A DNA stretch of 64,000 nt from an uncultured virus (IMG/VR IMGVR_UViG_3300037512_001285) (IMGVR_UViG_3300037512_001285:1-64000); one strand, 5' to 3'. Counted from the first letter of the stretch, positions 1 through 63,963 are shown. The notes: generated from the letters alone by a model not told the origin. Made by a program: numbers and translations.

Positions 1-1148
1 CAAAATGACAATAATTTAATACCAATTTCTCGACATTTTTTCCATTTATTATAATGATAATTACTATCTTTTAATGAATGCCAATAAATACCATTACATT
101 CGATCGCAATATTGTGTTCCGGGATAAATATATCTAATTCTTTCCCATTTAATATACTTTTATTATTTGTCTCATAAAATACATTATATTTGTCGAGAAT
201 ATCTCTTATAAATAATTCTATAGTAGTTCCTTTATTAGTATTGCCGGGACATAACACAACACATAACTCTCTATTTTCATAATTTCTTACAAAGTATTTA
301 TCATAGGGAATAATAAATTCTTTTTCATTACATTTATTGCATTCTGGATGGGGACATTTACATTTAAAAAATTTACCGTCGAAATTTTCAATCCTATCAA
401 TTATTATATCAGAATTATTAATATGGTTTTGAATTCTTGTTTGTTTTGACTTATCATTCAATTCTTTATTTTGAAGAGGATATATTGAGCCATATTTTTT
501 AAGACGGGTTTGTTTGCCTTTTTCCTGTATTTCTTGAGATTGAAATGGATACTCTACTCCGAATTTTTTTAAATTATTCTGTTTAATTAATTCCAAATTA
601 ATATAATTTTCATCTCCGTATTTCTCTAATTTAGTATGTTTTGCTTTTTCAATAATTTTTTGTTTCTCCTCATCTGAACGAGTAGAAACTGTTTCATTTA
701 TTTTCTCTCGAATCTTCTTGTTAGACAAAGGAAACTCACACCCATATTTTTCTAAACATGTTTTTTTGCGCTTTTCTAATATAATATCATTGTAGTTTTC
801 TCCATATCTATCAATCATGGTTTGTTTACATCTATTAACAAACCCATTATCCATTAGATATCTCTCTTTAAACGTTTCTTTTTGTTTCCGTAGTTTTTCT
901 TTATCCGTATTTGCACAGTTAGAACAACAATATTTACCATACCCATGAGAATATGATATGAAATTAAGTTTTTTACCACAATTTAAACAAACCGAATCTT
1001 TATCAATATGATATACATATTTGTATAATTTTTCGGCAAACACCCCATCAAAATTGTCCATCAAGTATTGATAAAATTCCGGATAGTTCTTTTTTATAAA
1101 AGATTCGGTTCTTTGCCCTCGAGTATTAAATGTTTCGGGTATGATCAT
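1..1148 (-). CDS. Putative homing endonuclease (Zn ribbon, T-x-x-E-K/R-Y-G repeats, C-terminal Vsr/DUF559-like nuclease); 3' end runs off the window
   Basis: Not in ORF track; partial manual translation from ATG 1148: MIIPETFNTRG..CLNCG..YCCSNC, repeats TMIDRYG/TCLEKYG, then ELDIFIPEHNIAIECNGIYWH. Confidence 0.75.
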   Translation of the reverse strand, partial: MIIPETFNTRGQRTESFIKKNYPEFYQYLMDNFDGVFAEKLYKYVYHIDKDSVCLNCGKKLNFISYSHGYGKYCCSNCANTDKEKLRKQKETFKERYLMDNGFVNRCKQTMIDRYGENYNDIILEKRKKTCLEKYGCEFPLSNKKIREKINETVSTRSDEEKQKIIEKAKHTKLEKYGDENYINLELIKQNNLKKFGVEYPFQSQEIQEKGKQTRLKKYGSIYPLQNKELNDKSKQTRIQNHINNSDIIIDRIENFDGKFFKCKCPHPECNKCNEKEFIIPYDKYFVRNYENRELCVVLCPGNTNKGTTIELFIRDILDKYNVFYETNNKSILNGKELDIFIPEHNIAIECNGIYWHSLKDSNYHYNKWKKCREIGIKLLSF

Positions 1149-1197: not shown

Positions 1198-1593
1198 TCA
1201 CCACTTCATAGGATCAAAATTATTAATTTTCTGTTCCTCTCTAACAATCAATTTGCTTGGGATATTGACATTCAATATTTCAACATATCGAGAAATCCAT
1301 AAAATGTTCTCCCTCCCATTAACATGATCAACAATCGCTACTGTAATATTAACATTCCAGTGATCATTATAATCGTGTACAATCATCTTGGGATAACGAT
1401 AATCACATTCCTCTAAATTACTATATGTATGATTAGCATAGAATAAATTATTGAATACGTTTGCAATCCTCTCCGGATCAAACATACAATAATTAGCAGT
1501 CTCTGAGAAATGTCCCAAAATCAACCCTCTCATTTGTGACACTATCTTCTCAAGAGTTATTTCATTGGTTATATTATTATCAAATATACTCAT
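1198..1593 (-). CDS. MSIF-tag family small protein
   Basis: Starts MSIFDNNITNE. Confidence 0.8.
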   Translation of the reverse strand: MSIFDNNITNEITLEKIVSQMRGLILGHFSETANYCMFDPERIANVFNNLFYANHTYSNLEECDYRYPKMIVHDYNDHWNVNITVAIVDHVNGRENILWISRYVEILNVNIPSKLIVREEQKINNFDPMKW

Positions 1594-1847
1594 ACAAAGG
1601 GGACTTTCGATTATAACAATAAAACATCTCCCATCTCTTCAATCCGTTCAATCCGCTCATAAAGCAACTCTTGTTCTATAAGATCTGGATTAAACTGGGA
1701 TATATACGGTATTAATAAATTCATCTAATATGAACTCATAGTTACCAGTACCATCCCAAGGACAATAGGGATCATCAAATAGTTCAGCAATTAAACCAAT
1801 ACACTTTACCCTCATACGTCCAAAATTATATTTTTTCAATTGTCATC
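1590..1847 (-). pseudogene. Decayed MSIF-family remnants
   Basis: Broken frames, including QFNPDLIEQE, which resembles the FNPDLIQDE start of the adjacent gene. Confidence 0.4.
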
Positions 1848-2060
1848 CTATTCATCAAGGCTCAAGAAAAATGTCTTCGTTGTATCTAGAATCATGGGCG
1901 AATACATCATAGACGCATATACAGGAGCTCGCTTACCGCCTTTTGTAGACCAATGACCAATATCAGTGGTTGCCCATATCAGGTCTCTTAATTCCTCCAT
2001 GGTCTTTACTCGTCTGATATCAGATTCATCTTGAATCAAGTCTGGATTAAATATACTCAT
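1848..2060 (-). CDS. MSIF-tag family protein, possibly truncated
   Basis: Starts MSIFNPDLIQ; only 70 aa, followed by broken frames. Confidence 0.6.
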   Translation of the reverse strand: MSIFNPDLIQDESDIRRVKTMEELRDLIWATTDIGHWSTKGGKRAPVYASMMYSPMILDTTKTFFLSLDE

Positions 2061-2350
2061 CTAAATTCTACTGGTTCTTCTATATTAAATTTTTGATGAT
2101 TAGGCCATGTTGGCTGGGTAACCTCGAGCTTCAAATGACCGAATCCCTCCCTATAACAAACTATATGCAAATGCGAATATGCCTGTTGAACTCGTCGAAC
2201 TATTTTCTTTACAGCCAATCCCGGATTATAACCAATATCATACATAATCCCTTCCGTGAGATTAAAGCCAAACTCCTCTTCACATAACATTTCAAAGTAC
2301 GTTTGTGGGTCTGGTAGGGTCTGGATTATGTCTTTATCAAATATGCTCAT
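2057..2350 (-). CDS. MSIF-tag family small protein
   Basis: MSIFDKDII; ATGA overlap. Confidence 0.8.
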   Translation of the reverse strand: MSIFDKDIIQTLPDPQTYFEMLCEEEFGFNLTEGIMYDIGYNPGLAVKKIVRRVQQAYSHLHIVCYREGFGHLKLEVTQPTWPNHQKFNIEEPVEFR

Positions 2351-2802
2351 TGTATATACTTTTCTCGAAGCTCTTTATACTTTTCTCGAAACTCTTGAAC
2401 TTGTTTTGCAACAAGATCTAAAGTCTCTTCTGGTATTTGAAGAACTATGTGTTGTAATTGTAAGTTCCCTCGTAATCTGTAACTTACTATCAAGTATTCT
2501 TGTATAAGTGGTTTCGAATTATCCTGTTCTTTACATATGTCGTATTCAATCAGGTTGGCAAAAGGTCCTTTCCAATCGGTTGGTGGAGTGGGCTCTGTAC
2601 ATAAATTCGACATATATTGATCTAGGACATACGACAGAAACCCTGAAGGACTAACCGCAGGCGGTGAAGTTAGTTGAGGTTCATTCATATACACATCCAC
2701 AAGTCTATTAAATTCTTGTTGGATTTGTATCCCTACGTTATCAACCACATACGGGCTATATCCCAAGTCCTTTGAAACTATATCTTTATCGAATAGGCTC
2801 AT
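2347..2802 (-). CDS. MSIF-tag family small protein
   Basis: MSLFDKDIV; ATGA overlap. Confidence 0.8.
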   Translation of the reverse strand: MSLFDKDIVSKDLGYSPYVVDNVGIQIQQEFNRLVDVYMNEPQLTSPPAVSPSGFLSYVLDQYMSNLCTEPTPPTDWKGPFANLIEYDICKEQDNSKPLIQEYLIVSYRLRGNLQLQHIVLQIPEETLDLVAKQVQEFREKYKELREKYIQ

Positions 2803-3161
2803 ATCGTTTGTAGTGGAGTAAACTTAAAATTATAAAGTTCTGTATGTATTGGCCCTTCAAGATTCTGTTTATAATACCGGATATCAACAACAATATCTAA
2901 TCCCGCATGTCCATATTTGTGTGGAAGGAGTGTAATGTGGAAGTCATTAACGTCTAAATCATTTCTTTCAAAAACCTGCTCATAATTACTTCTAACCAAA
3001 TTCCGCAATATTTCTTCCATAAAAACAATTCCCCAGAACTTACCTTTGACCACATAATCATTAATCCATATTGCCATCTGTGCATGGATATGTTTCTTTA
3101 TTTCCTCAAACATCTCTTCTACGGAAGTTTTGTTGGATATGTTTTCGCTAAATATACTCAT
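2799..3161 (-). CDS. MSIF-tag family small protein
   Basis: Start reassigned to MSIFSENIS at 3161. Confidence 0.8.
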   Translation of the reverse strand: MSIFSENISNKTSVEEMFEEIKKHIHAQMAIWINDYVVKGKFWGIVFMEEILRNLVRSNYEQVFERNDLDVNDFHITLLPHKYGHAGLDIVVDIRYYKQNLEGPIHTELYNFKFTPLQTI

Positions 3162-3163
3162 AT

Positions 3164-3658
3164 TCAATACAAATAGAAATAGGAATAATTCCAATCTGTG
3201 ACTTTTTCTTTTAGACAATTCATATCCTTATCGAAACGAAGAATTACTTCGCCTGTGGGTTCACATGAGCTCTCAATTTCATCTTTCATTCGTTGACGAG
3301 CTTCTGATATTTCAGCCCAACCAAGAGTATTCATTTTGTGTGAGTAACGCGCCCTGATATGTTCTTCCTGACTATCAGAAACTTTAATTACAATGTAAAG
3401 TTCTCCGTCTATATATCGGTATTTTCCAAAAGAACCAATATAAGCGTCAGCGTCAGGCACATACAAATTATATTTTGGTAAGAGTTCATAACACCAATCA
3501 TTAATTTTGTTGTAATTAAGATTTGCTCTGTTATTATCTCTGTTTCTGATAAAATATGATTTGTATGAGTCAATCTTTGCTCTCAAAGCAAGCATAAACT
3601 GAAACTTTCTTTTTACGTCTAACCGACGTTCAATTATGTTTTCACTAAATAACCCCAT
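3164..3658 (-). CDS. MSIF-tag family small protein
   Basis: MGLFSENII. Confidence 0.8.
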   Translation of the reverse strand: MGLFSENIIERRLDVKRKFQFMLALRAKIDSYKSYFIRNRDNNRANLNYNKINDWCYELLPKYNLYVPDADAYIGSFGKYRYIDGELYIVIKVSDSQEEHIRARYSHKMNTLGWAEISEARQRMKDEIESSCEPTGEVILRFDKDMNCLKEKVTDWNYSYFYLY

Positions 3659-3661
3659 ATC

Positions 3662-4108
3662 TTAAATCGTCCACCATTCGTGTTTAAGTTTTTCTATATT
3701 GTATTCCAACACCTTTCCATACTGATTAAGAACAATGTGGATGTTTCCATAGTTCTCCCAATAATTTTCATCACCGAAGCCGCTATAGTCATCCGTAGGG
3801 ATAGTAATAAAGTAATACCCGTCTTTCCACTCAACCCAGGGATATTCTGTTTTATAGTCAAACCTCCTATCTTTGGGATCATACATCTGTCCTTCGACAC
3901 ATAATATATTATTATATTTTGTGCTATTCTTAATACTTACAATATACATAAATATAAGATTACACACATTTGCTGGTCCATGAGTCTTTCTTGTTGCAAG
4001 AATATCTTTGCGATGTGCCTGTAACTTATCAATCACACTAAAGCAAAACTGATCGATGAGAGGAACGTGTACTTCTTTCTCGATTATGTCACTATCAAAT
4101 AGACTCAT
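3662..4108 (-). CDS. MSIF-tag family small protein
   Basis: MSLFDSDII. Confidence 0.8.
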   Translation of the reverse strand: MSLFDSDIIEKEVHVPLIDQFCFSVIDKLQAHRKDILATRKTHGPANVCNLIFMYIVSIKNSTKYNNILCVEGQMYDPKDRRFDYKTEYPWVEWKDGYYFITIPTDDYSGFGDENYWENYGNIHIVLNQYGKVLEYNIEKLKHEWWTI

Positions 4109-4156
4109 GTATTAAATCAACTTTATTGATCGATTCAAACTCTGTTTGAATTTATA

Positions 4157-4510
4157 TTAACAAAACTTCACAAAATATATAGATTTTATTCTCCCGTTAC
4201 TTCCCATTTGTATCTTCCACTTTACCCATACACCATACTTGCTATAGATGCGTTGTACTGTATTGTCAAGCGATTCTTGCCATGATTTGGGAAGATGCTT
4301 CATATTATGAAACATTTTTTTAATATCCTTTTTACTGTATGGTGGTGTATCAGAACTATCTACATCGATGAAATGACCACTCGTACGATCCCACGCGGTT
4401 TGAAATCCGCGTCTCTTGAGGTATTCGCGAGCAAGAATGTCATAACAAACATTATTCCAATTGGTGTCTTTTGGAATAGAAGGGGTGATGTTATTAGTGA
4501 ATATTCCCAT
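4157..4510 (-). CDS. MSIF-tag family small protein
   Basis: MGIFTNNIT. Confidence 0.8.
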   Translation of the reverse strand: MGIFTNNITPSIPKDTNWNNVCYDILAREYLKRRGFQTAWDRTSGHFIDVDSSDTPPYSKKDIKKMFHNMKHLPKSWQESLDNTVQRIYSKYGVWVKWKIQMGSNGRIKSIYFVKFC

Positions 4511-4766
4511 TTGAGTATTTATCTATTAATTTATCAAGATTAGCAAATTCGATTTTTTTCCAATATCCGTGTCGTCTAAATGGATCGACCCAATTAACAT
4601 ATACATCACTTTTTCTTAATTCTCCTATAATGTAATTCATTTTAGTGACACACATATTCTTATAAAGATCTCCATTCAGTTCATTGTATGTCTCCCCCCA
4701 TCGTTTGAGATCAAGGAGTTTTTCAAGAACTGTTTCATTAGTTACGTTATCACCAAATATGCTCAT
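4494..4766 (-). CDS. MSIF-tag family small protein
   Basis: MSIFGDNVT. Confidence 0.8.
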   Translation of the reverse strand: MSIFGDNVTNETVLEKLLDLKRWGETYNELNGDLYKNMCVTKMNYIIGELRKSDVYVNWVDPFRRHGYWKKIEFANLDKLIDKYSNGNIH

Positions 4767-5104
4767 AGACTAGGCACAGGAAGTTTAAGACAAAGAAACA
4801 CATTATCTGGACTAGGAAGAAAGTCTTCTTGAGATTCTGAATAGATTATAGATAAGGAAATCCTCGAAAAACAATTCTCATAAACTACATAATTCACAAT
4901 TACCTCAGGATGATACATATTGAATTTATTAAAACGATATATCACCCCGCTCAGAGCGCGTTGGCAAGCTTTCTCGGTTTCTATTATATTCCCACCATTC
5001 TGTATAAAGAGAAGTTCAAAGTTATCAGTATACCACCTCTTGAGAAGATCATGAAACTTCTCCAACGGAGAAGGTGTAGTTATATTATCGTCAAATACAC
5101 TCAT
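4763..5104 (-). CDS. MSIF-tag family small protein
   Basis: MSVFDDNIT; PLEKF shared with neighbouring gene 5101-5505. Confidence 0.8.
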   Translation of the reverse strand: MSVFDDNITTPSPLEKFHDLLKRWYTDNFELLFIQNGGNIIETEKACQRALSGVIYRFNKFNMYHPEVIVNYVVYENCFSRISLSIIYSESQEDFLPSPDNVFLCLKLPVPSL

Positions 5105-5505
5105 AAGACCGGTTTTTGATGAATATCAAAATTCATATGAAGGAATATTTTTGCTTTGTCGTGTACATATATAGTAGGGTCATCGCCGTAGTAAAGAGTG
5201 ACTTCTATATAGTATTTAGATTCTCCCGGATGTCGATCATAACGAGTGTGAAATGTTAAATGAACCCATGGCTGATAAATTTTATGCGCCTTGAACATGT
5301 CTTTGATCTTCTGCGATTCCCCTAACTCAGCGATACTATTTATATGTCCGTTAACCATAGCGTTAAATTCAGTTGCAGTCCATGATAGATTATAACTTGA
5401 TTTTTCGTAGACGCAATAAAAATTTTCTTCGAGATAGGATTTTATAAAATCATAAAATTTCTCTAGCGGAGTTTTGTCTGTTATGTGTTCACTAAATACA
5501 CTCAT
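5101..5505 (-). CDS. MSIF-tag family small protein
   Basis: MSVFSEHIT. Confidence 0.8.
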   Translation of the reverse strand: MSVFSEHITDKTPLEKFYDFIKSYLEENFYCVYEKSSYNLSWTATEFNAMVNGHINSIAELGESQKIKDMFKAHKIYQPWVHLTFHTRYDRHPGESKYYIEVTLYYGDDPTIYVHDKAKIFLHMNFDIHQKPVL

Positions 5506-5870
5506 TTTATTATTCCATTTATACCAACATTAAACTCACAAAGATACTCTTGGTGTACATGCATGTCACCAGATGGTTTAGCATAATAAAAATATACAGT
5601 ATATAGGGTTTTATGATTATGGCTGGTTTGAAATACTTCAAAACGATATATTTTTTCATCGTTATTTTTTGGATCACTGCTATAATCGTAGCTATAATCA
5701 TAAAACAACAATCTTTTACATACTAATTCCTGCCTGATATAGTAATACATCAATTGTTCATCAGCATTGTAGCGTATCATCTCTCTTGGAATGACTCTCC
5801 CTACAATCTCTTTACATTGATCGTAGAGTTCGTCAAGTGGGTGTTTGATATTATCACAAAACAGACTCAT
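5502..5870 (-). CDS. MSIF-tag family small protein
   Basis: MSLFCDNIK; paralog of 5854-6234 (LYD.CK, VGINGII). Confidence 0.8.
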   Translation of the reverse strand: MSLFCDNIKHPLDELYDQCKEIVGRVIPREMIRYNADEQLMYYYIRQELVCKRLLFYDYSYDYSSDPKNNDEKIYRFEVFQTSHNHKTLYTVYFYYAKPSGDMHVHQEYLCEFNVGINGIIK

Positions 5871-6234
5871 CGATTATTCCATTTATACCAACAGTAAATT
5901 GAGCAAGAGGTTTTCCTTGTTGCCCCCACAGATCATTAATAATTTCATCCAAAAAATAGAATCTTACTACATATGTGGGTATTCCCCGAATATACGCTCC
6001 AGTCTTTACATCTACCTCACTGATTTTATTAATATCTGATGAATTTCTTTCGGGCCACCACCTATTTGCTAGCAACCCTATACAGTTTAATTCGAACATT
6101 ATATCTCGTTGCATTGTCTCACATCTACCATTATAATGCATCATATTACCGGGAATAATTGTTCGACATATATCTTTACACGCGTCGTAGAGGTGGTCAA
6201 TAGGAAGCTGAATATCTTTATCAAATATGCTCAT
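5854..6234 (-). CDS. MSIF-tag family small protein
   Basis: Start reassigned to MSIFDKDIQ. Confidence 0.8.
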   Translation of the reverse strand: MSIFDKDIQLPIDHLYDACKDICRTIIPGNMMHYNGRCETMQRDIMFELNCIGLLANRWWPERNSSDINKISEVDVKTGAYIRGIPTYVVRFYFLDEIINDLWGQQGKPLAQFTVGINGIIDESVL

Positions 6235-6242
6235 GTATTTAA

Positions 6243-6455
6243 TTAACAATTAATACCGAAATATTTAAAGTATTGTTTCACCACTTTCTCATCTATATGA
6301 CTATATCGATCATATTGCTCCTTTTCCTTAAAATTACCAACCACTTTCTCCGGAGCACCAAGTAGGTATTTCATTATCCAATACTCTGGATAGTCGCGAC
6401 ATAGTTGTGCTTCTGAACAAGCACTCTCAACTGCTTTTTTATCGAATATGCTCAT
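6243..6455 (-). CDS. MSIF-tag family small protein
   Basis: Start reassigned to MSIFDKKAV. Confidence 0.75.
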   Translation of the reverse strand: MSIFDKKAVESACSEAQLCRDYPEYWIMKYLLGAPEKVVGNFKEKEQYDRYSHIDEKVVKQYFKYFGINC

Positions 6456-6843
6456 AAATACCCTCTCCAAATATATCTATTTTTAGATCTTTGACTTCTA
6501 CTTCCAGATCGTCATCATCCATTAATATTTTTTCATCAATAGCAAGCTTAATATTTACACGAAATTTATTGCCCCCTATCTTCTTCCTCACATCCGTCCT
6601 CGTACTGAGGACTCCCATCTCAACTAGTTCTCTATGATAAGTATTTACCCATAGATTAGCTAGGTCTTTATAAATGAGATCTGTTATATGATAATCATCT
6701 GTAAATATTTTCCAATGATCGGATGTATCCCTGTACTGAAGACTGTACTCTGCAAACTGCTCAAGAATTCGATCTCTGAACCAACAACGGATCTTCTCGG
6801 TCCGAGAAAGATCATTTGTTATATTATCGTTAAATATGCTCAT
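6439..6843 (-). CDS. MSIF-tag family small protein
   Basis: MSIFNDNIT; paralog of 7252-7623 (LWV, GV.STRT, GNKF). Confidence 0.8.
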   Translation of the reverse strand: MSIFNDNITNDLSRTEKIRCWFRDRILEQFAEYSLQYRDTSDHWKIFTDDYHITDLIYKDLANLWVNTYHRELVEMGVLSTRTDVRKKIGGNKFRVNIKLAIDEKILMDDDDLEVEVKDLKIDIFGEGIYEHIR

Positions 6844-6859
6844 GTATTTAATTATCCTA

Positions 6860-7255
6860 TTATTTTACACTAAATCCTTCAGCATAACTATTTGTACCAT
6901 AAGCAAACGAATAAAATCCCTCGGTGTGATCAAAAGTATTTGATTCTTCGAAGATTACTTCTTTTATATTTCCTTTCATATAAGTATCCTCGGGCCATAA
7001 GATATATTTGGGTCGCATCTTTTTACCGACACGATCATAATATCGTTGTATTCCCAACTGCAGAAAACAGTTAATTACAGAGGTTCTGCTAGGCGGATAC
7101 TTGTTAATGAGTCCTTTATATAATGTTCCCGCGGAATCCCATATGGAATTTTGAGTATTATAGTTCGGGTTCCACTCACGAAAGATATCACAAGCATATT
7201 GCAAAATGATTTCCGTGGTTGTTTTTGATGTTATATTATTACTAAAAATGCTCAT
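6860..7255 (-). CDS. MSIF-tag family small protein
   Basis: Start reassigned to MSIFSNNIT. Confidence 0.8.
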   Translation of the reverse strand: MSIFSNNITSKTTTEIILQYACDIFREWNPNYNTQNSIWDSAGTLYKGLINKYPPSRTSVINCFLQLGIQRYYDRVGKKMRPKYILWPEDTYMKGNIKEVIFEESNTFDHTEGFYSFAYGTNSYAEGFSVK

Positions 7256-7623
7256 AATATCATCCAATTTGATTCAACAATATCTACTTCTTTATCACTC
7301 CAAAACCCATGTTCTCTACAAGATGGATCTAGCGAGAATCTTATTATAACCTTAAACTTATTTCCGCGTTGTTTAATTTCAGTTCGCGTGCTATACACCC
7401 CTAAATGCTCCAACTGAGTCTTGTATTGTTTCACCCAAAGAAAAACGAGATGGTGATATATATATAATTTTTTAGTGGAAATACTTTGACAAAATTCACG
7501 CTCCCCTTTTTCGTGATATACTTGTTGACATAAATCCCACTGTTCCTTTATCTTACACAAGAACCACTTTTTAATCCTTTCGTTAGGGAGTTCATTTGTT
7601 ATATTATCGTCAAACACACTCAT
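7252..7623 (-). CDS. MSIF-tag family small protein
   Basis: MSVFDDNIT. Confidence 0.8.
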   Translation of the reverse strand: MSVFDDNITNELPNERIKKWFLCKIKEQWDLCQQVYHEKGEREFCQSISTKKLYIYHHLVFLWVKQYKTQLEHLGVYSTRTEIKQRGNKFKVIIRFSLDPSCREHGFWSDKEVDIVESNWMIL

Positions 7624-7952
7624 ACTTCAGTTACTACTATAGCTTTAGTGAGACCTGATAAATGTCCATTACCTCGAGGCCATCGTTCAACATGGAAAGT
7701 ATAATGTTTACCAGTAATTGTAGTCAACCTCATCATTCCTTTTGTGATGTAGTAAGACCACCCGTACAAATCTCCATTACCATTAAAGTTATAACGGATC
7801 AGTAAATTATAAAGATCACGACCACAAGAGATTGTGTTGTTGAAGGTATCCGTAAAACTGAGAGGACGACCGCTGGTATATTCATCCCAAGCGAAGTCAA
7901 AAACCCGTTCGGTGATGATCTGAGACGTGATATTATCGCTAAATATACTCAT
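7620..7952 (-). CDS. MSIF-tag family small protein
   Basis: Start reassigned to MSIFSDNIT. Confidence 0.8.
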   Translation of the reverse strand: MSIFSDNITSQIITERVFDFAWDEYTSGRPLSFTDTFNNTISCGRDLYNLLIRYNFNGNGDLYGWSYYITKGMMRLTTITGKHYTFHVERWPRGNGHLSGLTKAIVVTEV

Positions 7953-8010
7953 GTATATAAATGAATTAAAATTCATTAATTCAAACTCTGTATAAATTTA
8001 ATTACCAAAT

Positions 8011-8388
8011 CTACAACCAATCTTTATTGAATATAAATGTCCTTGTCTTAATTCCAGTAATTTCATCTTGTTGAGGATGATATTCGAGAGTTATAAGAAT
8101 ATATTCACCATCATCTTTGAATGTAAGGGAATTCTTAAATATAATCTCATAAGGAGCAAAGCAATCTGGGAACCACCAGAGTGGACAGGCATTGTTTAGT
8201 GCTTCAAAGAATATATCCCATTGAACAGTGAAGAACTCTTGCAGATCAAGATATGGATTGATATCAAGATTGGTCAAGTATAGATCACAGAAGAAATTAA
8301 AAGAATAGTCGAGGAGCATTCCGGTACGATCATTGTCATCTACCTCGACTTCTTTCTTGATTACTCCTTCTGTGTCAAATATACTCAT
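8011..8388 (-). CDS. MSIF-tag family small protein
   Basis: MSIFDTEGVI; TAATG overlap with the RNase H gene. Confidence 0.8.
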   Translation of the reverse strand: MSIFDTEGVIKKEVEVDDNDRTGMLLDYSFNFFCDLYLTNLDINPYLDLQEFFTVQWDIFFEALNNACPLWWFPDCFAPYEIIFKNSLTFKDDGEYILITLEYHPQQDEITGIKTRTFIFNKDWL

Positions 8389-9482
8389 TAAATCTCCTCA
8401 AATATACTTTCGATATCTGTGTCTTCCTGTGTCTTGGCAAGAAGTCTATAGTTGTTTCTCAACATCCCTACATCGACCTGTTTGTATTCGGTTTCATTCA
8501 TAGACTGAATAACCGGTGCTGGAATAGTCTCTTCATTCAACCAAACGAGCTTGATGTTGTAGTCAAGCATCTCAATGATGTCTTTCTTTTTGAACTTGTA
8601 AGGAGAGAACTTCTTGGAATGCATAATCCAATCAGCAATATCCTCGCGACATTCTTTTAAGTCCCCTACTGTTGTCATAGGGAGATCGTGTTCTTGATAC
8701 TTCTTCAAATCACCTTCGGAGAACCGATAAGTCCTCCCTCCTTTCTCAAAGCGAACCACCGCCTTAATATTATCTCCACTATCCCCACAAAGCACTTTCT
8801 CTATGACCACGTCATCTGGATTGACATATATTACTTTTCCTGTTGATCCCGCCTTTAGTGAATCAATCAATTGTGTATCATAGGCAAGCGGAGTCATAAA
8901 GAAATCCATTGGATCTTCTTCTTTATCTCCACTCTTATAACACTCTGGGAGACACAGTTGGCTCGTGCGATCACTATACCAAGCGGTGAAGGTTCCGTCC
9001 GCGGTCTTCTGAACAAGCTGTTGAAGGTCACGGTCAATACTCCATATGAGAACGTTAGTGCCTTCTGCATTAAGCCTCCTTGACCAGTACCACACCCAGT
9101 CATCGCCCTCAGCAGAGAGGGTCTGAGAGACAGTCACACCAACCCCACGAGCGTTGGTCATCAAATCATTAAGAGCATTAAAGACGTGTTCCCAATCAAC
9201 CTCTACTTGCTGCTCGCGATTACCCTTATACTTTGTTCCTTTGAGTTGAGTAGGAATAGGAAGTTGTTTACGCCAGCTACCCCCGTCACCAACAAGAACA
9301 ACATTATCCACAGCAGGGAACCTGTTGAGCATGATATTAATACTACGAGCTAACATATCTGTAAGATTCTGTTGAGCCTTCTGTAGAGCCACTTCCGGGA
9401 CTCCTTTCTCGAAACCACCGACAACACTAAATCTTGACATCAAGACATAGTTCATGTCGCAAACCAATGTAAGATTATTCAT
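8388..9482 (-). CDS. rnh: 5'-3' exonuclease/flap endonuclease (T4 RNase H-like)
   Basis: Motifs D-x-N, DGGSWRK, YKGNR, EGDD, SIDRDL.Q, GDSGDNI. Confidence 0.9.
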   Translation of the reverse strand: MNNLTLVCDMNYVLMSRFSVVGGFEKGVPEVALQKAQQNLTDMLARSINIMLNRFPAVDNVVLVGDGGSWRKQLPIPTQLKGTKYKGNREQQVEVDWEHVFNALNDLMTNARGVGVTVSQTLSAEGDDWVWYWSRRLNAEGTNVLIWSIDRDLQQLVQKTADGTFTAWYSDRTSQLCLPECYKSGDKEEDPMDFFMTPLAYDTQLIDSLKAGSTGKVIYVNPDDVVIEKVLCGDSGDNIKAVVRFEKGGRTYRFSEGDLKKYQEHDLPMTTVGDLKECREDIADWIMHSKKFSPYKFKKKDIIEMLDYNIKLVWLNEETIPAPVIQSMNETEYKQVDVGMLRNNYRLLAKTQEDTDIESIFEEI

Positions 9483-9516
9483 GAATTAATATATTAAAGG
9501 AGTTATTATTTGTTTA

Positions 9517-9729
9517 ATGAATATCCAACCTAAATCTAGATCGGATTGTAATAAACACGTAGTTAAACGTGAACATTACAGTAGAAAGAACGGAATTTGG
9601 AAACCAAAGAAACCTTTTGAAACTGAACAAGATGCGGTAAGCTGGATAAATAAATATAAAATGAGTGGCTATTCGGCATACATCTGTAAGGTGTGTGGCA
9701 AGTGGCATATTGGCAAAAAGAAAGTATGA
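9517..9729 (+). CDS. Small Zn-finger protein
   Basis: YICKVCGKWHIG motif; TTATTATT upstream. Confidence 0.65.
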   Translation: MNIQPKSRSDCNKHVVKREHYSRKNGIWKPKKPFETEQDAVSWINKYKMSGYSAYICKVCGKWHIGKKKV

Positions 9730-10052
9730 AACAATTAACCGAAAGTCTATTTGATAAGGATCTTACAATAAAGAATCTCTCACCCGCAGAGATAGCTAAT
9801 TTATACAAAGGGTATAAACTTAACAAAACCGATGGTACTAAGGATTGTTTTGGAACACTATTAAAGAAGGGTGATTTGGTTTTAGTATATCGCAATGCCT
9901 CCGGAATGAGTATAGGAGTGTATAATGGATTGTATAAAGAAAATAGGGGGAGACTTTGCGAAATTTTAATTCCTGATAGTGATTTAACGAGATCTCATGC
10001 TTGTTATTGTGATAGTGTATTTAAATTAACTAATATACCAGAAATTAAATAA
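9726..10052 (+). CDS. Putative virion-internal protein (capsid-targeting-like leader + SLFD tag)
   Basis: MKQLTE|SLFDKDL. Confidence 0.65.
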   Translation: MKQLTESLFDKDLTIKNLSPAEIANLYKGYKLNKTDGTKDCFGTLLKKGDLVLVYRNASGMSIGVYNGLYKENRGRLCEILIPDSDLTRSHACYCDSVFKLTNIPEIK

Positions 10053-17349: not shown

Positions 17350-17378
17350 AAAAAAAAGAACCCCGAAGGGTTCTTTTT
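17349..17378. terminator. Bidirectional intrinsic terminator
   Basis: A-tract, GAACCC-CGAA-GGGTTC, T-tract. Confidence 0.85.
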
Positions 17379-18124
17379 TAGTCCTGATAAGGAACCGGAT
17401 CTTTCAATCCGTTCTTCTCAAATGCTTCTAGTCGTTCTGTACAACTACCACACTTCCCACAGCTCCTACCTTCAGGGTCCGGATCATAGCATGTGTGGGT
17501 ATTGGAAAGGAACTCATCACGGTCCTCATCATTCCATCCAAGAGTCTTCATCGCCTTCAACCCCTCTGCAAGAACTTCCGCTTTATCAATATCAACAAAC
17601 GGTGCTTCGTAAGCTACTTTGTCTGCGTTCCAATCAGAAATCCTAAATGCCTTCTCACATGCCTCACGAGATTCAGGACGACAGTCGGGATAGATAGTAT
17701 GGTCTCCGGCATGGATACCAAGACTGATGATGACATTCTCTCCACTCTCTACTGCCCAGTTGATCGCTTTACTAAATACAACTGCACTAAAGAGTACATT
17801 CCTAAGGGGAACTACTGTACTCTTCATATTCTCTGCAGCATAGTGTCCGTGAGGAATATCCTTTCCAGTACTCGCTACAAGTGAACTGGTATTTCCAGAG
17901 AATACATCAACCATATTAATAATCTGATGACTGACCGGAAGACCCTTTGCTCGTAAGAACGCGATGTTTTTGGTAATCTTCTCAAGTTCAATCCTATGTT
18001 TCTGACCGTAGTCAAAACTATAACATCTTACTTCCTTGCCTTCTGCAAGGAGCTTTAGTAAAAGCATGCTGCTATCCAATCCGCCGGAGCAGCTAAGAAC
18101 GGCCTTCTTTGCAAAATTACTCAT
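17378..18124 (-). CDS. queC: 7-cyano-7-deazaguanine synthase
   Basis: SGGLDS, FDYGQKH, VPLRN, YPDCR, TCY...CGKCGSC. Confidence 0.95.
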   Translation of the reverse strand: MSNFAKKAVLSCSGGLDSSMLLLKLLAEGKEVRCYSFDYGQKHRIELEKITKNIAFLRAKGLPVSHQIINMVDVFSGNTSSLVASTGKDIPHGHYAAENMKSTVVPLRNVLFSAVVFSKAINWAVESGENVIISLGIHAGDHTIYPDCRPESREACEKAFRISDWNADKVAYEAPFVDIDKAEVLAEGLKAMKTLGWNDEDRDEFLSNTHTCYDPDPEGRSCGKCGSCTERLEAFEKNGLKDPVPYQD

Positions 18125-33335: not shown

Positions 33336-33779
33336 TTATTCGTTTATAATTCCGTATTCCTTAGCACAATTCCAGTTAATCTTAAATACATTATCATGAT
33401 CAAGTAACCACACGTCAAAACCGAGGATTTTGAACTTATAAGTTATCTTTTTAATCATCTTTTCACCAGTCGCCGTACCTTGATTGTATGGAGTTATTCC
33501 AAATATCTCAGCCGGAAAATCTGTAGTGAATCTACTTACACTTACAGTGTGATTGTCTAGTCCCAGCTTCACATAATAATATATATAAGATACTACATCA
33601 TTTATAACGGAATCTATTGTTTCTTCAGGAATAAAATCAAGACATTGAAAGTCATCCCGGCTGTACATATAATCTACAGCGGAATGACCTATATTCTTAC
33701 TCACACTATCATGCAGATTGAAAATTGTCTGTGCGGTGATAGTAGGAGATTCTATTATATCTTTATCAAAGAGACTCAT
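33336..33779 (-). CDS. MSIF-tag family protein (outlier)
   Basis: MSLFDKDIIES. Confidence 0.8.
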   Translation of the reverse strand: MSLFDKDIIESPTITAQTIFNLHDSVSKNIGHSAVDYMYSRDDFQCLDFIPEETIDSVINDVVSYIYYYVKLGLDNHTVSVSRFTTDFPAEIFGITPYNQGTATGEKMIKKITYKFKILGFDVWLLDHDNVFKINWNCAKEYGIINE

Positions 33780-34190: not shown

Positions 34191-34610
34191 TTAATTTTCT
34201 TCTTCCCAATTGATTTCTATATACTTACCAAGCATCGTTGGGTCGTCATCGTATACGTCCCATTTTATTTTCATCTTGAATCCGCGTTCCTGAAAATATT
34301 TACAAAACTCAACGAACTTCGGTTCTAGGTCTTTCCCGTGAATACCCTTGTTATCATACATTAGTTTTTTCACGTTTGTCCCTTTCTTAAAAGCACTAGT
34401 TAATCCCAACGCTTTCGGACAAATCCTATGATAATAAACCACACGCGGAACGGAATACTTTACTTCATCGTAAATAACTCCCAATAGTTTATCACAAGTG
34501 GTCTCGAGAGGTTCTCCTTCTGGTGGAACCATCCGTTTACTTATGAGATCCCTCAGAAAACTTGCGGTGATGGGGTTATCCGCGTTTATATTATCGTTAA
34601 ATATGCTCAT
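34191..34610 (-). CDS. MSIF-tag family protein (outlier)
   Basis: Start reassigned to MSIFNDNIN; ITA and GF...I.W shared with 33336-33779. Confidence 0.8.
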   Translation of the reverse strand: MSIFNDNINADNPITASFLRDLISKRMVPPEGEPLETTCDKLLGVIYDEVKYSVPRVVYYHRICPKALGLTSAFKKGTNVKKLMYDNKGIHGKDLEPKFVEFCKYFQERGFKMKIKWDVYDDDPTMLGKYIEINWEEEN

Positions 34611-45678: not shown

Positions 45679-45979
45679 ATAGAGCCAAGACATTACTGCC
45701 CTGGCGAGTACCTCCCCACTGGAGGCACACCCTATAAGGCCTATCCCTACAAGGATTTCTTTTCAGCTCCTCTCCAAGCAGTCTTCACAGATACCACCCA
45801 AAGAGGTTTTTTACTCATATTATATTTCTTTCAGACTTGTCAATGAACTAGATATCTACTTGTGCTGAGCGCCAGCCTCGGACGTTTCCTGTTCCTCCTC
45901 CACTTTCAATATCTCTTACAGATTATATATACTAAACTCACATCGAACATTTAGTGATTTTCTTATATATTTTCTCTTG

Positions 45980-46052
45980 TGACCCCAGTGAGACTCGAAC
46001 TCACGATCCACTCTTTAAAGGAGAGTTGCTTTACCAGCTCAGCTATGAGGTC
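45980..46052 (-). tRNA. tRNA-Lys(TTT), intronless, C33
   Basis: ACTCT-CCTTTAA-AGAGT; same acceptor stem as the intron-containing copy. Confidence 0.8.
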
Positions 46053-56416: not shown

Positions 56417-56887
56417 TTATTTACGTACAAATTTAAGATTTAAGTTTTGACAGGGGAAGATTTGTATTTCATCAAAGTCCCCATCTAACATATTTTGTTC
56501 CTGCCCAACCACATACCGGCCGTTCTTATAAATCTGAACAGAAACATGTTTATACTTCTCTGATAGGCTCGCTTGATAATATGGATGTAATATCAAATTA
56601 AGATAATCCTTAAAGAGGTCTGTGGTCTCAGTATCCGGAGTAAATTTAATCTCATTAATTATTTTTAATAGCCCTCTGTATATTGTTTCATTCTCCGTAT
56701 CACATTTAATTTTAGATTCTTTTCTAATTCTAACGGCACTCATATATTTTGAAAAGAATATCGTGTTGTGATCACTAAAATATGTATTTAATATTGGAGA
56801 TTCAACCAACTTAAATACGTCACCAAAGGTTAGATCTTTAGTGATATTCTTTTCTGTGTCAAATAGGCTTTCTACTAAACTCTTCAT
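56417..56887 (-). CDS. Putative virion-internal protein
   Basis: MKSLVE|SLFD. Confidence 0.65.
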   Translation of the reverse strand: MKSLVESLFDTEKNITKDLTFGDVFKLVESPILNTYFSDHNTIFFSKYMSAVRIRKESKIKCDTENETIYRGLLKIINEIKFTPDTETTDLFKDYLNLILHPYYQASLSEKYKHVSVQIYKNGRYVVGQEQNMLDGDFDEIQIFPCQNLNLKFVRK

Positions 56888-57399
56888 GACTTTACTTTGT
56901 CCTTTTGGTATAGACGTTCCTTATACCAACCAGGGAGTTTTTTAAGGGAATCACAATCATCAAACATACCATATATGTATTTTAGTTTACGGGGATTCCA
57001 TTTCTCCAGATTTTGATTGAAACGTTCACATCCCTCAAACATGGATTCTGCATCTTTAAGATTACTTACATCCCACCCAGATATATCACAGTTAAAATAC
57101 TTACAATTACAGAACATTTCATACATGCATGTTACTTTCTTTGTATTCCACTTTGAGACATCATAGTTGTACAAATAATACGGTATATCACTTTCGGGAT
57201 CATAGAATATATGTCCCATATCATCAACATCTTTGGTGTTTATCCAATTGAGATCAACAGTTTCTCCTTCTTTGGGGTTAACTGTTTTTAAGTATTCGTA
57301 TACAGTCTGGTGTAACTCCTCCCAAGACTTTGGGTGAGCATTAAATGTGTCTTTAGAAATCAAATCCTTATCAAACAAACTCTCTGCTAAACTCTTCAT
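56884..57399 (-). CDS. DUF285/BspA-like repeat protein with capsid-targeting-like leader
   Basis: MKSLAE|SLFDKDL; W(N/D)..V..M..MF repeats. Confidence 0.75.
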   Translation of the reverse strand: MKSLAESLFDKDLISKDTFNAHPKSWEELHQTVYEYLKTVNPKEGETVDLNWINTKDVDDMGHIFYDPESDIPYYLYNYDVSKWNTKKVTCMYEMFCNCKYFNCDISGWDVSNLKDAESMFEGCERFNQNLEKWNPRKLKYIYGMFDDCDSLKKLPGWYKERLYQKDKVKS

Positions 57400-59184: not shown

Positions 59185-59586
59185 TTATACAACCTCACTT
59201 GCTAGCTTTTGAGGATCACTTATCTTGAAGACATATTCCGATGGTCTACTTATTCTTTCAATTGATTCAGACCATGAATACCTACCTTCTTTTGGAAGGA
59301 AAAGAGCGATACTTACTTGTTTCTTTACAGCAATTGCTTTCCCTATATTAAGTCTCTTTCCTGTTCCCCAATGACCACCAGCATCCAAGAACACCACCCA
59401 ATCACCGGGTTCAACCTTCCTACCGAGACAATCACATCCCGTTCCACTAATAGTTACGCCGCCGTTACCAACAAGCCAATCAATTAATTGTTTCTCCCAG
59501 TTGGGTCCACTTTCGATGTTCTTATCAAGATCAAAGACGCTCTCGTCAACAGTAGCATCTGATATGTATTCTTTAATGTCTTTCAT
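59185..59586 (-). CDS. Putative virion-internal protein
   Basis: MKDIKEYI...DE|SVFD; DC.G....GD.V shared with 9726-10052. Confidence 0.65.
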   Translation of the reverse strand: MKDIKEYISDATVDESVFDLDKNIESGPNWEKQLIDWLVGNGGVTISGTGCDCLGRKVEPGDWVVFLDAGGHWGTGKRLNIGKAIAVKKQVSIALFLPKEGRYSWSESIERISRPSEYVFKISDPQKLASEVV

Positions 59587-60174: not shown

Positions 60175-60807
60175 TTATTTCTTATCTTCATAAATAAAAA
60201 GAGTTACTTGAATACTATATTTTTCTTCGTTATAACTAGCTTTATCTGCAATCACATTCCAAAGAGCCACTTTCCATCCATCAATATTCATAGTCGGTCT
60301 AGTATGTAACTGATTCAAATCTCTACCAGACAATACAATTTCTTGTTCATCCGTTACAAATGGTACATTTGAAAAGTCTTTCGTCTTGAAGAAATCCACG
60401 AGTGTTAAATACATCTTATTGATATATTCATACTCTGGCATTTTCTTATTTATGTTGTTATCAAACACACTTTCTTCAATAGTTGTATTAAATAATTGTT
60501 CTATTGCTCGTGAAAGCGTGGACTTATTTATATTATTAGAGCCAAGATCAAGAGTGGTCATCAATACTATTTTATAACCGACATACTTGGTATTCTCACT
60601 TTTGTATCTTACAATATCCCCTTTATTCCACCACCATTTTCCAGCATCCACCTTTTCCCAACTTGATAGATTATTATCTTTATGATTTGGCCATTTTGGT
60701 AAAGTATCTACTAGTTCATCACATACTTCAGTTGCGACCTCTTTGTAGTTATCACTGGTCTTCCAGCGCCTCAATGCTTCGAATATGTAATTTACTAAAT
60801 GCTTCAT
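60175..60807 (-). CDS. Putative virion-internal protein
   Basis: MKHLVNYIFE; internal IEE|SVFDNNI. Confidence 0.65.
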   Translation of the reverse strand: MKHLVNYIFEALRRWKTSDNYKEVATEVCDELVDTLPKWPNHKDNNLSSWEKVDAGKWWWNKGDIVRYKSENTKYVGYKIVLMTTLDLGSNNINKSTLSRAIEQLFNTTIEESVFDNNINKKMPEYEYINKMYLTLVDFFKTKDFSNVPFVTDEQEIVLSGRDLNQLHTRPTMNIDGWKVALWNVIADKASYNEEKYSIQVTLFIYEDKK

Positions 60808-63396: not shown

Positions 63397-63963
63397 TTAG
63401 AATCTTCCGTATTTCTTTTCAATATATTTCCATGCTTCAACTGGATCATCAATGAATGTCCTTGGAACGTCGGACCATTCATCATACTTATGGTTGCTCT
63501 CTTCTGCGCTCTTTGGTTCGATCCACTCAACTGGACGAAGGGTCTTACCAACACGACTTGCAGCTGCGGTTACAAGGAATGACCATTCGAACATATTTAT
63601 CGAGATGAATGGGTTATATACTACGACATAACCTTTAGGATTAACTCCACGAGAAGTGTCAAAGTAGAGCTCAAGAACGTTACCATCTTTGGTGATTTTT
63701 GACTTCTGCCATTGTTTGATGTTATTGTCAACCATTATCTTATCAACCTCAATCATTGACTTCATCTTCTTCGCTAACTCCTCAGGTTTTTCGCGACCTT
63801 CTTTTATACGAGCAATAAGAATATCCTCAACTGTTGAGTTCTTATTATAAGGCATTAATATTCTTTTGAATATATATCTCAAATCCTCACCAGAGAGTAT
63901 ATCTGCAAAATCCTTAACGGGATCGAAAATAGATTCTTTTACATATGATACAAGATGTTTCAT
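63397..63963 (-). CDS. Putative virion-internal protein
   Basis: MKHLVSYVKE|SIFD. Confidence 0.7.
   Translation of the reverse strand: MKHLVSYVKESIFDPVKDFADILSGEDLRYIFKRILMPYNKNSTVEDILIARIKEGREKPEELAKKMKSMIEVDKIMVDNNIKQWQKSKITKDGNVLELYFDTSRGVNPKGYVVVYNPFISINMFEWSFLVTAAASRVGKTLRPVEWIEPKSAEESNHKYDEWSDVPRTFIDDPVEAWKYIEKKYGRF

Follow-up and report, generated by a model that had tools for sequence, protein, structure and literature searches.

An N-terminal tag on leaderless and leadered proteins of a T4-like jumbo phage and its possible role as a docking address

The subject of this study is a 64,000-nucleotide stretch of DNA of an uncultured virus (IMG/VR IMGVR_UViG_3300037512_001285, positions 1-64000; hereafter the window), in which 19 consecutive small genes encode proteins opening with a common short peptide. 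In the T4-like jumbo phage that is the source of this DNA, an acidic tag of 7-10 residues stands either directly after the initiator Met (37 genes, called here bare) or after a leader of 6 or 10 residues ending in [LI]-x-E (29 genes, called leadered). Tentatively, with a probability of about 0.45, we propose that the tag is a lineage-specific docking address on head-delivered proteins, which early proteins may have reused in leaderless form.

The numbers above refer to G001, a record of 239,809 bases rated complete, whose RNase H is 100% identical to that of the window. In total, 66 of its approximately 305 genes are tagged. Across all loci, 157 bare and 103 leadered distinct proteins, belonging to 101 families, were collected. 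Two bare rows (L084:12-188 and L004:4566-4805) were afterwards dropped as false and are left out of the counts, except that the within-family selection comparison omits the first of them only. Two antisense frames, one duplicate and two doubtful leadered rows were removed before counting, and four of the six matches of a DNA pattern scan (L007, L008, L010 and L011; antisense frames of another phage) were discarded as irrelevant.

Tagged genes with and without a leader

The 19 minus-strand genes of the array (1198-8388; 70-164 amino acids, aa) and two outlying genes (33336-33779 and 34191-34610) all start with M[SG][ILV]F[DSNTGC], as described in the first-pass annotation of the window. Among the 305 called genes of G001, M[SG][ILV]F starts were expected 0.5 times and observed 36 times (chance of at most 0.0017 per gene); this list holds 36 of the 37 bare genes, one having been lost to an overlap filter. 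The genes had been described as mostly coupled by ATGA-type overlaps, which is true of only 8 of the 18 internal junctions, the others being three overlaps of 17 bases and seven gaps of 2-254 bases. The hydrophobic residue placed by the same annotation at positions 8-10 is most clearly seen as Ile at residue 8 (22 of the 37 bare genes of G001), and the tag is longer than was described, with the fuller consensus S/G-[ILV]-F-[DSN]-x-[ND]-[IL]. The bare-tag genes of the window are as follows:

8011..8388 (-), gene 1, MSIFDTEGVI, 125 aa, family F28
7620..7952 (-), gene 2, MSIFSDNI, 110 aa, F40; TTATATA motif upstream
7252..7623 (-), gene 3, MSVFDDNI, 123 aa, F19; its paralog is 6439-6843
6860..7255 (-), gene 4, MSIFSNNI, 131 aa, singleton
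6439..6843 (-), gene 5, MSIFNDNI, 134 aa, F19
6243..6455 (-), gene 6, MSIFDKKAV, 70 aa, F31
5854..6234 (-), gene 7, MSIFDKDI, 126 aa, F8; modelled as two helices and a 4-strand sheet, tag with a predicted local distance difference test score (pLDDT) <50
5502..5870 (-), gene 8, MSLFCDNI, 122 aa, F8
5101..5505 (-), gene 9, MSVFSEHI, 134 aa, F13; modelled as three helices and a 3-strand sheet
4763..5104 (-), gene 10, MSVFDDNI, 113 aa, F13
4494..4766 (-), gene 11, MSIFGDNV, 90 aa, F41
4157..4510 (-), gene 12, MGIFTNNI, 117 aa, F14
3662..4108 (-), gene 13, MSLFDSDI, 148 aa, F7
3164..3658 (-), gene 14, MGLFSENI, 164 aa, F42
2799..3161 (-), gene 15, MSIFSENI, 120 aa, F20
2347..2802 (-), gene 16, MSLFDKDI, 151 aa, F21
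2057..2350 (-), gene 17, MSIFDKDI, 97 aa, F15
1848..2060 (-), gene 18, MSIFNPDL, 70 aa, singleton body
1594..1847 (-), gap of 254 bases; the two short frames (~40 aa) in it carry degenerate tags ELFDD and SQFNPDLI, possible remnants
1198..1593 (-), gene 19, MSIFDNNI, 131 aa, singleton; set off by the 254-base gap
33336..33779 (-), outlying gene, MSLFDKDI, 147 aa
34191..34610 (-), outlying gene, MSIFNDNI, 139 aa

Overlooked in the first-pass annotation, the same tag is found behind a leader in five further genes of the window and internally in a sixth (the slash marks the end of the leader):

9726..10052 (+), MKQLTE/SLFDKDL
56417..56887 (-), MKSLVE/SLFDTEKNI
56884..57399 (-), MKSLAE/SLFDKDLI, DUF285 (leucine-rich repeat-like) body, behind the head-closure gene
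59185..59586 (-), 15-residue leader ending TVDE/SVFDLDKNI
60175..60807 (-), start MKHLVNYIFE, like a capsid-targeting sequence (CTS), and internal tag IEE/SVFDNNI; adjoins the portal gene
63397..63963 (-), MKHLVSYVKE/SIFDPV, 10-residue CTS-like leader

In the 29 leadered genes of G001 the tag stands behind a propeptide of the T4 type, in most cases MK[ST]LxE, with a site of the prohead-protease type between them. Among all 103 leadered proteins the leader has 6 residues in 77 and 10 in 19, and position -3 is Leu or Ile in 100, the search pattern itself having required Glu before the site and Ser or Gly after it. A propeptide ending in [IL]-x-E before a small residue is thus a property of the leadered class, and the 19+2 bare genes of the window have no leader. 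Genes for both a gp21-type prohead protease and a gp23-type capsid protein are present in G001 (Peptidase_S77, E 2e-07; PHROG head maturation protease, E 3e-44; Gp23, E 5.5e-25). [ILV]xE[SAG] sites are enriched in the phage protease and a putative scaffold, with 20 observed versus 4.7±2.0 expected, the scaffold assignment being an inference for a protein with no family match. There are also 11 genes with a CTS-like start and no tag, six fusion proteins in which a CTS-like start is followed by internal KSLxE sites and then the tag, and one family of the relative G003 with members both with and without a leader. In nine leadered genes of different families and genomes (L042, L043, L057, L059, L069, L070 and L091) one common 33-base insert doubles the tag, which points to exchange among gene starts.

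In T4, the CTS has targeting residues 4 and 7 and is processed at 8 and 10, according to the available part of PMC9026906, and Alt is cut at ITE-6 (available part of PMC5694885). The T4 record shows IPII and IPIII beginning with a 10-residue leader that ends in IAE, and Alt beginning with MELITE/LFDED. By analogy, the leader would be a propeptide for capsid targeting, which the prohead protease removes by a cut after Glu, and the leadered proteins would be packed in the head and ejected with the DNA. The initiator Met is removed before Ser or Gly, which would give the bare proteins the same N-terminus; since the tag lies directly behind the cut site, cleavage would leave the leadered proteins with the start of the Met-trimmed bare ones. 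The tag may then act as a linear motif that docks on a single lineage-specific partner met by both classes in the infected cell, the candidates being a phage protein, either co-ejected or early, and a host surface that varies. Docking would gather many small, fast-turnover binders at one place, so that the leader would be the delivery route, the tag the address and the body the payload. Both the layout known from T4 Alt and the CTS and the change of the tag in both classes between lineages (see below) support this proposal. Of the partners suggested in the first-pass annotation, a protease or compartment came closest, as in 29 other genes the tag comes right behind a site of the prohead-protease type.

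The two classes also differ in their upstream regions and composition. With promoter motifs (AT-rich) and compared gene sets both chosen by us, a late-type TTATTATT-type motif was found upstream of 15 of 18 structural genes and 2 of 19 genes for replication or metabolism; among operon heads, it precedes 4 of 10 leadered and none of 11 bare ones. Walking along the operons of G001 gave, for bare genes, 27 middle, 1 late and 8 no calls, and for leadered genes, 16 late, 5 middle, 4 both and 4 none. In the relative G004, with 10 leadered and 25 bare genes, the late motif stands upstream of two leadered genes and one bare gene, and the middle motif upstream of no leadered and five bare genes. Lys accounts for 7.9% of the residues of bare and 10.2% of those of leadered bodies in G001 (median isoelectric point, pI, 6.1 vs 8.5; p=0.003) and for 7.3% and 10.7% in G004 (pI 6.1 vs 7.9; p=0.10). 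Lysines of the T4 internal proteins contact DNA (available part of PMC3012670). The leadered genes thus lean towards late-type promoters and lysine-rich bodies, and the bare genes sit in replication operons. The array itself follows an operon head with a middle-type motif:

8388..9482 (-), RNase H / 5'-3' exonuclease, operon head; C-terminus IESIFEEI, clamp-box-like and distinct from the tag
9483..9500 (-), AATATATT-type motif, probable middle/early-type promoter; enriched 5' of replication and metabolic genes

Selection on the tag and diversity of the bodies

The varied codons of the tag had been taken as a sign of selection on the peptide, and the comparison of synonymous (pS) and non-synonymous (pN) differences supports this: selection acts on the tag at the peptide level, with pS of 0.68-0.81 versus pN of 0.26-0.34 in G001, and no DNA-only conservation was found. 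When bare tags were compared with leadered ones, pS/pN was 0.76/0.33 in G001 and 0.94/0.27 in G004. Positions 1-3 are fixed by the search pattern; within families, positions 4-7 give the same picture (pS 0.69, pN 0.33; bodies 0.76 and 0.42). In a 22-member family the only invariant columns are M1 and F4. The reading of the codons as merely varied has to be tempered, as the Ser codon of the tag is AGY in 31 of 33 cases (38% in bodies) and the Ile codon ATA in 21 of 22 (44% in bodies), third positions otherwise varying; shared descent is therefore visible at the DNA level too. A DNA-level repeat or promoter cassette was considered and is contradicted by the saturation of synonymous sites within genomes (pS 0.68-1.03). 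A Bacteroidota promoter box, TAnnTTTG, inside the tag was likewise rejected, being present in 12 of the 157 bare sequences.

The tag is retained in homologs whose bodies are 37% identical, and in searches with body-only profiles all homologs with a visible start had kept it, apart from family F87. Searching 1.84 billion proteins with a profile yielded 65 matches, all tagged, 48 of which are new homologs of known families; they are not independent support, because the search profile included the tag.

The 19 array bodies fall into 16 BLAST families, with three paralog pairs, and relatives have homologs of 16 of the 19. Models of two families (pLDDT 76.9 and 77.1, built from 7 and 6 sequences) both show two or three helices and a sheet of 3-4 strands with no detectable sequence link between them, and in both the tag is of low confidence (first ten residues, pLDDT 40 and 49). 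They share many of their top structural matches, all with Z <7, the best being Z 6.6 (root mean square deviation 3.8, 98 residues aligned) and 5.3 (3.4, 86 aligned). Functions suggested by these matches (the N-terminal part of IMPase, gp25/TssE, the sheath C-terminal domain and pilins) were rejected as generic helix-sheet arrangements, and a BFVD structure search gave no match at E<=0.001. In leave-one-family-out scoring, 8 of 25 held-out families ranked within the top 5% of 105 decoys, and of 561 pairs of family profiles a single one, a leadered pair, exceeded 90% probability.

No match to Pfam or PHROGs at E<=0.001 was obtained for the 21 bare-tag genes of the window, nor any for the other bare G001 proteins scanned. 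Among 88 proteins scanned, DUF285 was the only family found, in two leadered ones. A word-index homolog search with gene 13 (3662-4108) returned only itself, and in the ESM Atlas one bare protein matched unnamed clusters, whereas a leadered one yielded nothing usable. Family and fold searches thus indicated no payload function, and gave no sign of the host takeover or anti-defence suggested in the first-pass annotation.

The first-pass annotation presented unrelated bodies on a shared tag, which holds only in part. The common helix-helix-sheet layout, together with the eight families scoring above decoys, suggests that part of the array is an old paralog set, which goes halfway towards the single fold that the first-pass annotation had named as refuting its proposal. 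The tag is nevertheless portable, as it also occurs on DUF285 bodies and on the separate bodies of G004. Two bodies, F26 and F33, each occur with two N-terminal variants, swapped.

Tag change between lineages and competing explanations

The relatives of G001 carry other versions of the tag. G004, a 97-kb fragment whose RNase H is 45% identical to that of G001, has no bare arrays of the G001 type, but contains 25 bare genes starting with M-I-Q-D-x-D-x-x-[VI] and 10 leadered ones starting with MR[TP]LWE/A-I-[QN]-D-x-D-x-x-[VI] (L036 and L037). Its tagged bodies include one homologous pair only and none is homologous to G001-type bodies, so that this looks like a second array system, independent of that of G001. 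Tags of the SLFDSEDDLL type were found in one family of G003. The complete relative G008 has eight leadered SILD tags and about one bare, G009 has seven leadered and no bare tags, and the fragments G010 and G011 have CTS-like starts only. In the first 50 kb of the 225-kb phage PTm1, one MSVFD start was found and, with our patterns, no CTS-type start. A common core, [SAGM][ILV]x[DNSE]x[DENH] (a pattern defined post hoc), is present in 91 of 114 tags of three genomes versus 1 of 238 other G001 starts. Since each genome uses the same tag in both classes and the tag changes between genomes, the putative partner is likely to be lineage-specific. The tag is probably older on the leadered class, as G008 and G009 have leadered tags and hardly any bare ones, and the bare arrays would be expansions; this order is read from the distribution of tags.

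The bare tag had been compared with the bacterial beta-clamp motif in the first-pass annotation, where clamp docking was put forward, and arrays do flank the genes for RNase H and the single-stranded DNA-binding protein (SSB). The consensus of that motif is Q1-L2-x-L4-F5 (available part of PMC4549789). The S-L-F core of the leadered class resembles it and the phage polymerase carries the motif. In contrast to it, the tag is N-terminal, its bare form has no Gln1 and mostly Ile or Val for Leu4, and it has extra acidic and aliphatic positions. The family B polymerase (L018:15552-16463, -) and its relatives end with the clamp motif (EMSLFDF in G001, Q[ML]xLF in relatives), and the phage SSB ends with EDLPF, which we take to resemble the bacterial SSB tail. 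Loose first-pass searches found no phage clamp of the gp45 or beta family in G001 or G003, and the phage therefore probably uses the host clamp. Of 119 polymerase homologs, 83 end with Q-x-x-[LMI]-F, with Leu at 4 in 82 of the 83 and Glu at 2 never. Bare tags, by comparison, have Leu in only 40 of 155 and no Gln, and leadered tags carry Glu in the second position, with Gln in the first in just 11 of 103. The RNase H tail IESIF is close to the leader-tag junction; in G004, however, RNase H keeps SLF and the polymerase ends with QVSLF, although the tags there read IQD, and the Leu4-Phe5 core of the clamp motif is not retained in the tags of relatives (I-Q in G004, I-L in G008). The tag thus does not appear to be a beta-clamp motif, and docking in the host clamp is the least credible of the explanations considered.

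A competitor to the docking address, which we consider somewhat unlikely, is that the tag forms the second half of a head-loading or ejection signal binding the prohead core, protease or portal, the bare proteins being packaged uncleaved in a virion that would hold up to ~77 internal proteins. Leadered tags in relatives nearly without a bare class, and a tag that changes by lineage as expected of a phage-encoded partner, would both be explained in this way. The 10-residue leaders fit the hydrophobic CTS positions 4 and 7, and 6-residue leaders, shorter than the T4 CTS, have Leu4 but Ser7; in Alt these positions straddle the cut. Bare tags have Phe4, Asn or Asp at 7, often Ile at 8, and [ILV]xE at 8-10 in 24 of 155 proteins. 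Against packaging of the bare class stand the lack of the late-type motif at its operon heads (0/11) and its Lys content and pI, which are like those of ordinary proteins. In addition, tagless CTS-like proteins exist, a full 10-residue leader precedes the tag in 19 of 103 cases, and neither the putative scaffold nor the protease nor the capsid protein showed a copy of the tag. Sequence does not separate this explanation from the docking address.

Several observations weigh against the docking address. One upstream site accounts for 17 of the 27 'middle' calls of bare genes, which were made with AT-rich, hand-picked motifs, and five leadered genes received the middle call as well. Protease sites are weakly depleted in leadered relative to bare bodies (10 against 12.8 expected, and 19 against 13.8), and G004 does not repeat this. 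The bare form of G004 has Met in place of Ala and retains it, so that a free Ser/Gly terminus is not universal. Five of the six members of F87 have no tag. G008 and G009, nearly or wholly free of bare genes, indicate that head cargo may be the sole bearer of the tag, in keeping with a role in the head too, and in T4 Alt the post-cut residues overlap the CTS positions.

The tag might also be a cassette inherited at gene starts that has no partner in common, spread by duplication, leader loss and 5'-end recombination, any selection being local (a folding arm or expression). We regard this as unlikely: the AGY/ATA codon bias, the 33-base insert, the swapped starts of F26 and F33, the shared body layout with its eight families above decoys, and the colinearity of arrays with gains and losses are all in its favour, yet the synonymous sites are saturated within genomes, the tag persists at 37% body identity outside the confident fold, and clearly different bodies such as DUF285 carry it. 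Even less probable is an N-terminal stability or degradation signal through which a protease or unfoldase determines how long injected and early proteins last. The mature N-terminal place of the tag in both classes and its low confidence in models would suit such a signal, and in seven related loci (L002, L003, L083, L084, L085, L088 and L091) the SSB-flanking array is followed by a frame that we take to be ClpP-like from a short motif rather than from a family search. No such frame follows the array of G001, however, no ClpP family was found among the G001 proteins scanned (not all), and a conserved host protease hardly explains the LF-to-IQ switch.

A more far-reaching form of the docking proposal, possible but doubtful, is a two-route, one-address effector system occupying about a fifth of the genes, in which the peptide would be unmasked by the protease on injected proteins and by Met removal on early-made ones and would lead dozens of fast-evolving binders to one hub in the infected cell, hub and tag drifting together between lineages.

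Genomic context and relation to known systems

The terminase of the phage is ~32% identical to Tenacibaculum phage terminases, and G001 has genes for a prohead protease and a capsid protein of the gp23 type, a family B polymerase in split form, an SSB of the gp32 type and three sigma-like factors. One of the latter (L013:3100-4482, -; 460 aa) is sigma-70-like, opens with a CTS-like start and is possibly virion-carried. Weak hints point to a Bacteroidota host: the best match of the QueC-like gene is in a Bacteroidales bin (48%), and one polymerase homolog carries the name of a Parabacteroides bin. The sequencing runs that hold the array are labelled bovine gut metagenome; at least half of the array words are present in 7 of 9 runs, three of which may be the source. 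In one RNA run a few short pieces were found, among contigs only; they say nothing on timing or level, and holes in coverage prove nothing.

Bare arrays occupy the interval between the RNase H and SSB genes and the region downstream of SSB, their order being conserved while genes are gained and lost; in G003 and G004, RNase H adjoins SSB with no array in between. Homing-endonuclease-like genes, recognised by eye, are numerous (window 1-1148 and many other G001 sites), and one of them splits the array from SSB. Other features include (i) a tRNA gene with the anticodon TTA, which would read the stop UAA (window 45979-46052, -), among 19 tRNA genes, (ii) a likely diversity-generating retroelement (L015:8853-10861, -), with reverse transcriptase and bAvd-like genes adjoining that of a 1160-aa protein, (iii) an untagged gene with a Pfam match to Acb3, an inhibitor of the cyclic oligonucleotide-based antiphage signalling system (CBASS) (L020:6747-7649, -; E 4.7e-18), (iv) genes of the 7-deazaguanine pathway (QueC-like, FolE2, radical SAM and PTPS; window 17378-18124, L014:17715-18671 and L019:14021-15419), possibly for DNA modification, and (v) past the window end (G000 63963-71664), an AAA ATPase with VWA-like and peptidase-like neighbours, recognised by eye.

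In the literature covered, mostly without subscription papers, we found no account of the tag or of a retained post-cleavage motif common to leaderless arrays, and the two T4 regions read showed no array of bare LFD starts. If the proposal is true, one motif would mark 66 of ~305 genes, of as yet unassigned function, as one functional class, in which injected and early-made proteins would be separable by sequence alone. The natural variants SLFD, SILD and AIQD would then serve as an inbuilt test of specificity in the search for the partner. Should the bare proteins instead be packaged, the phage would have an unusually large virion cargo, loaded by a new signal without cleavage, and that too would be novel.

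DarB of phage P1 likewise has a short N-terminal signal that loads an injected protein; in the available part of PMC9024508, unlike here, the Dar N-termini show no consensus and neither a repeated motif nor an array is described. T4 Alt, like many of the leadered proteins, has a 6-residue leader ending in [IL]-x-E followed by (S)LFD.D, but is one large ADP-ribosyltransferase, and no tagged protein matched such a family. A close likeness is that to IPI, IPII and IPIII, internal proteins of T4, with their CTS and gp21: the phage has a T4-like head module (gp23-type capsid protein and S77/S80 protease) and 10-residue MKxLxE[YF]IxE leaders, and in both cases diverse small bodies, which here would be cut after Glu, stand behind a conserved start (available parts of PMC9026906 and PMC3012670). 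In these testable sequence features the leadered class resembles the T4 internal proteins; the bare array is not placed among them. The conserved part of the T4 CTS is, as far as these sources go, the removed propeptide, whereas here a second motif would stay on the mature protein, and that motif also heads 37 leaderless genes, with 29 leadered genes against the four of T4. The T4 capsid-targeting idea would, if the proposal holds, gain a second layer, namely a signal that survives maturation and is common to genes without a leader.

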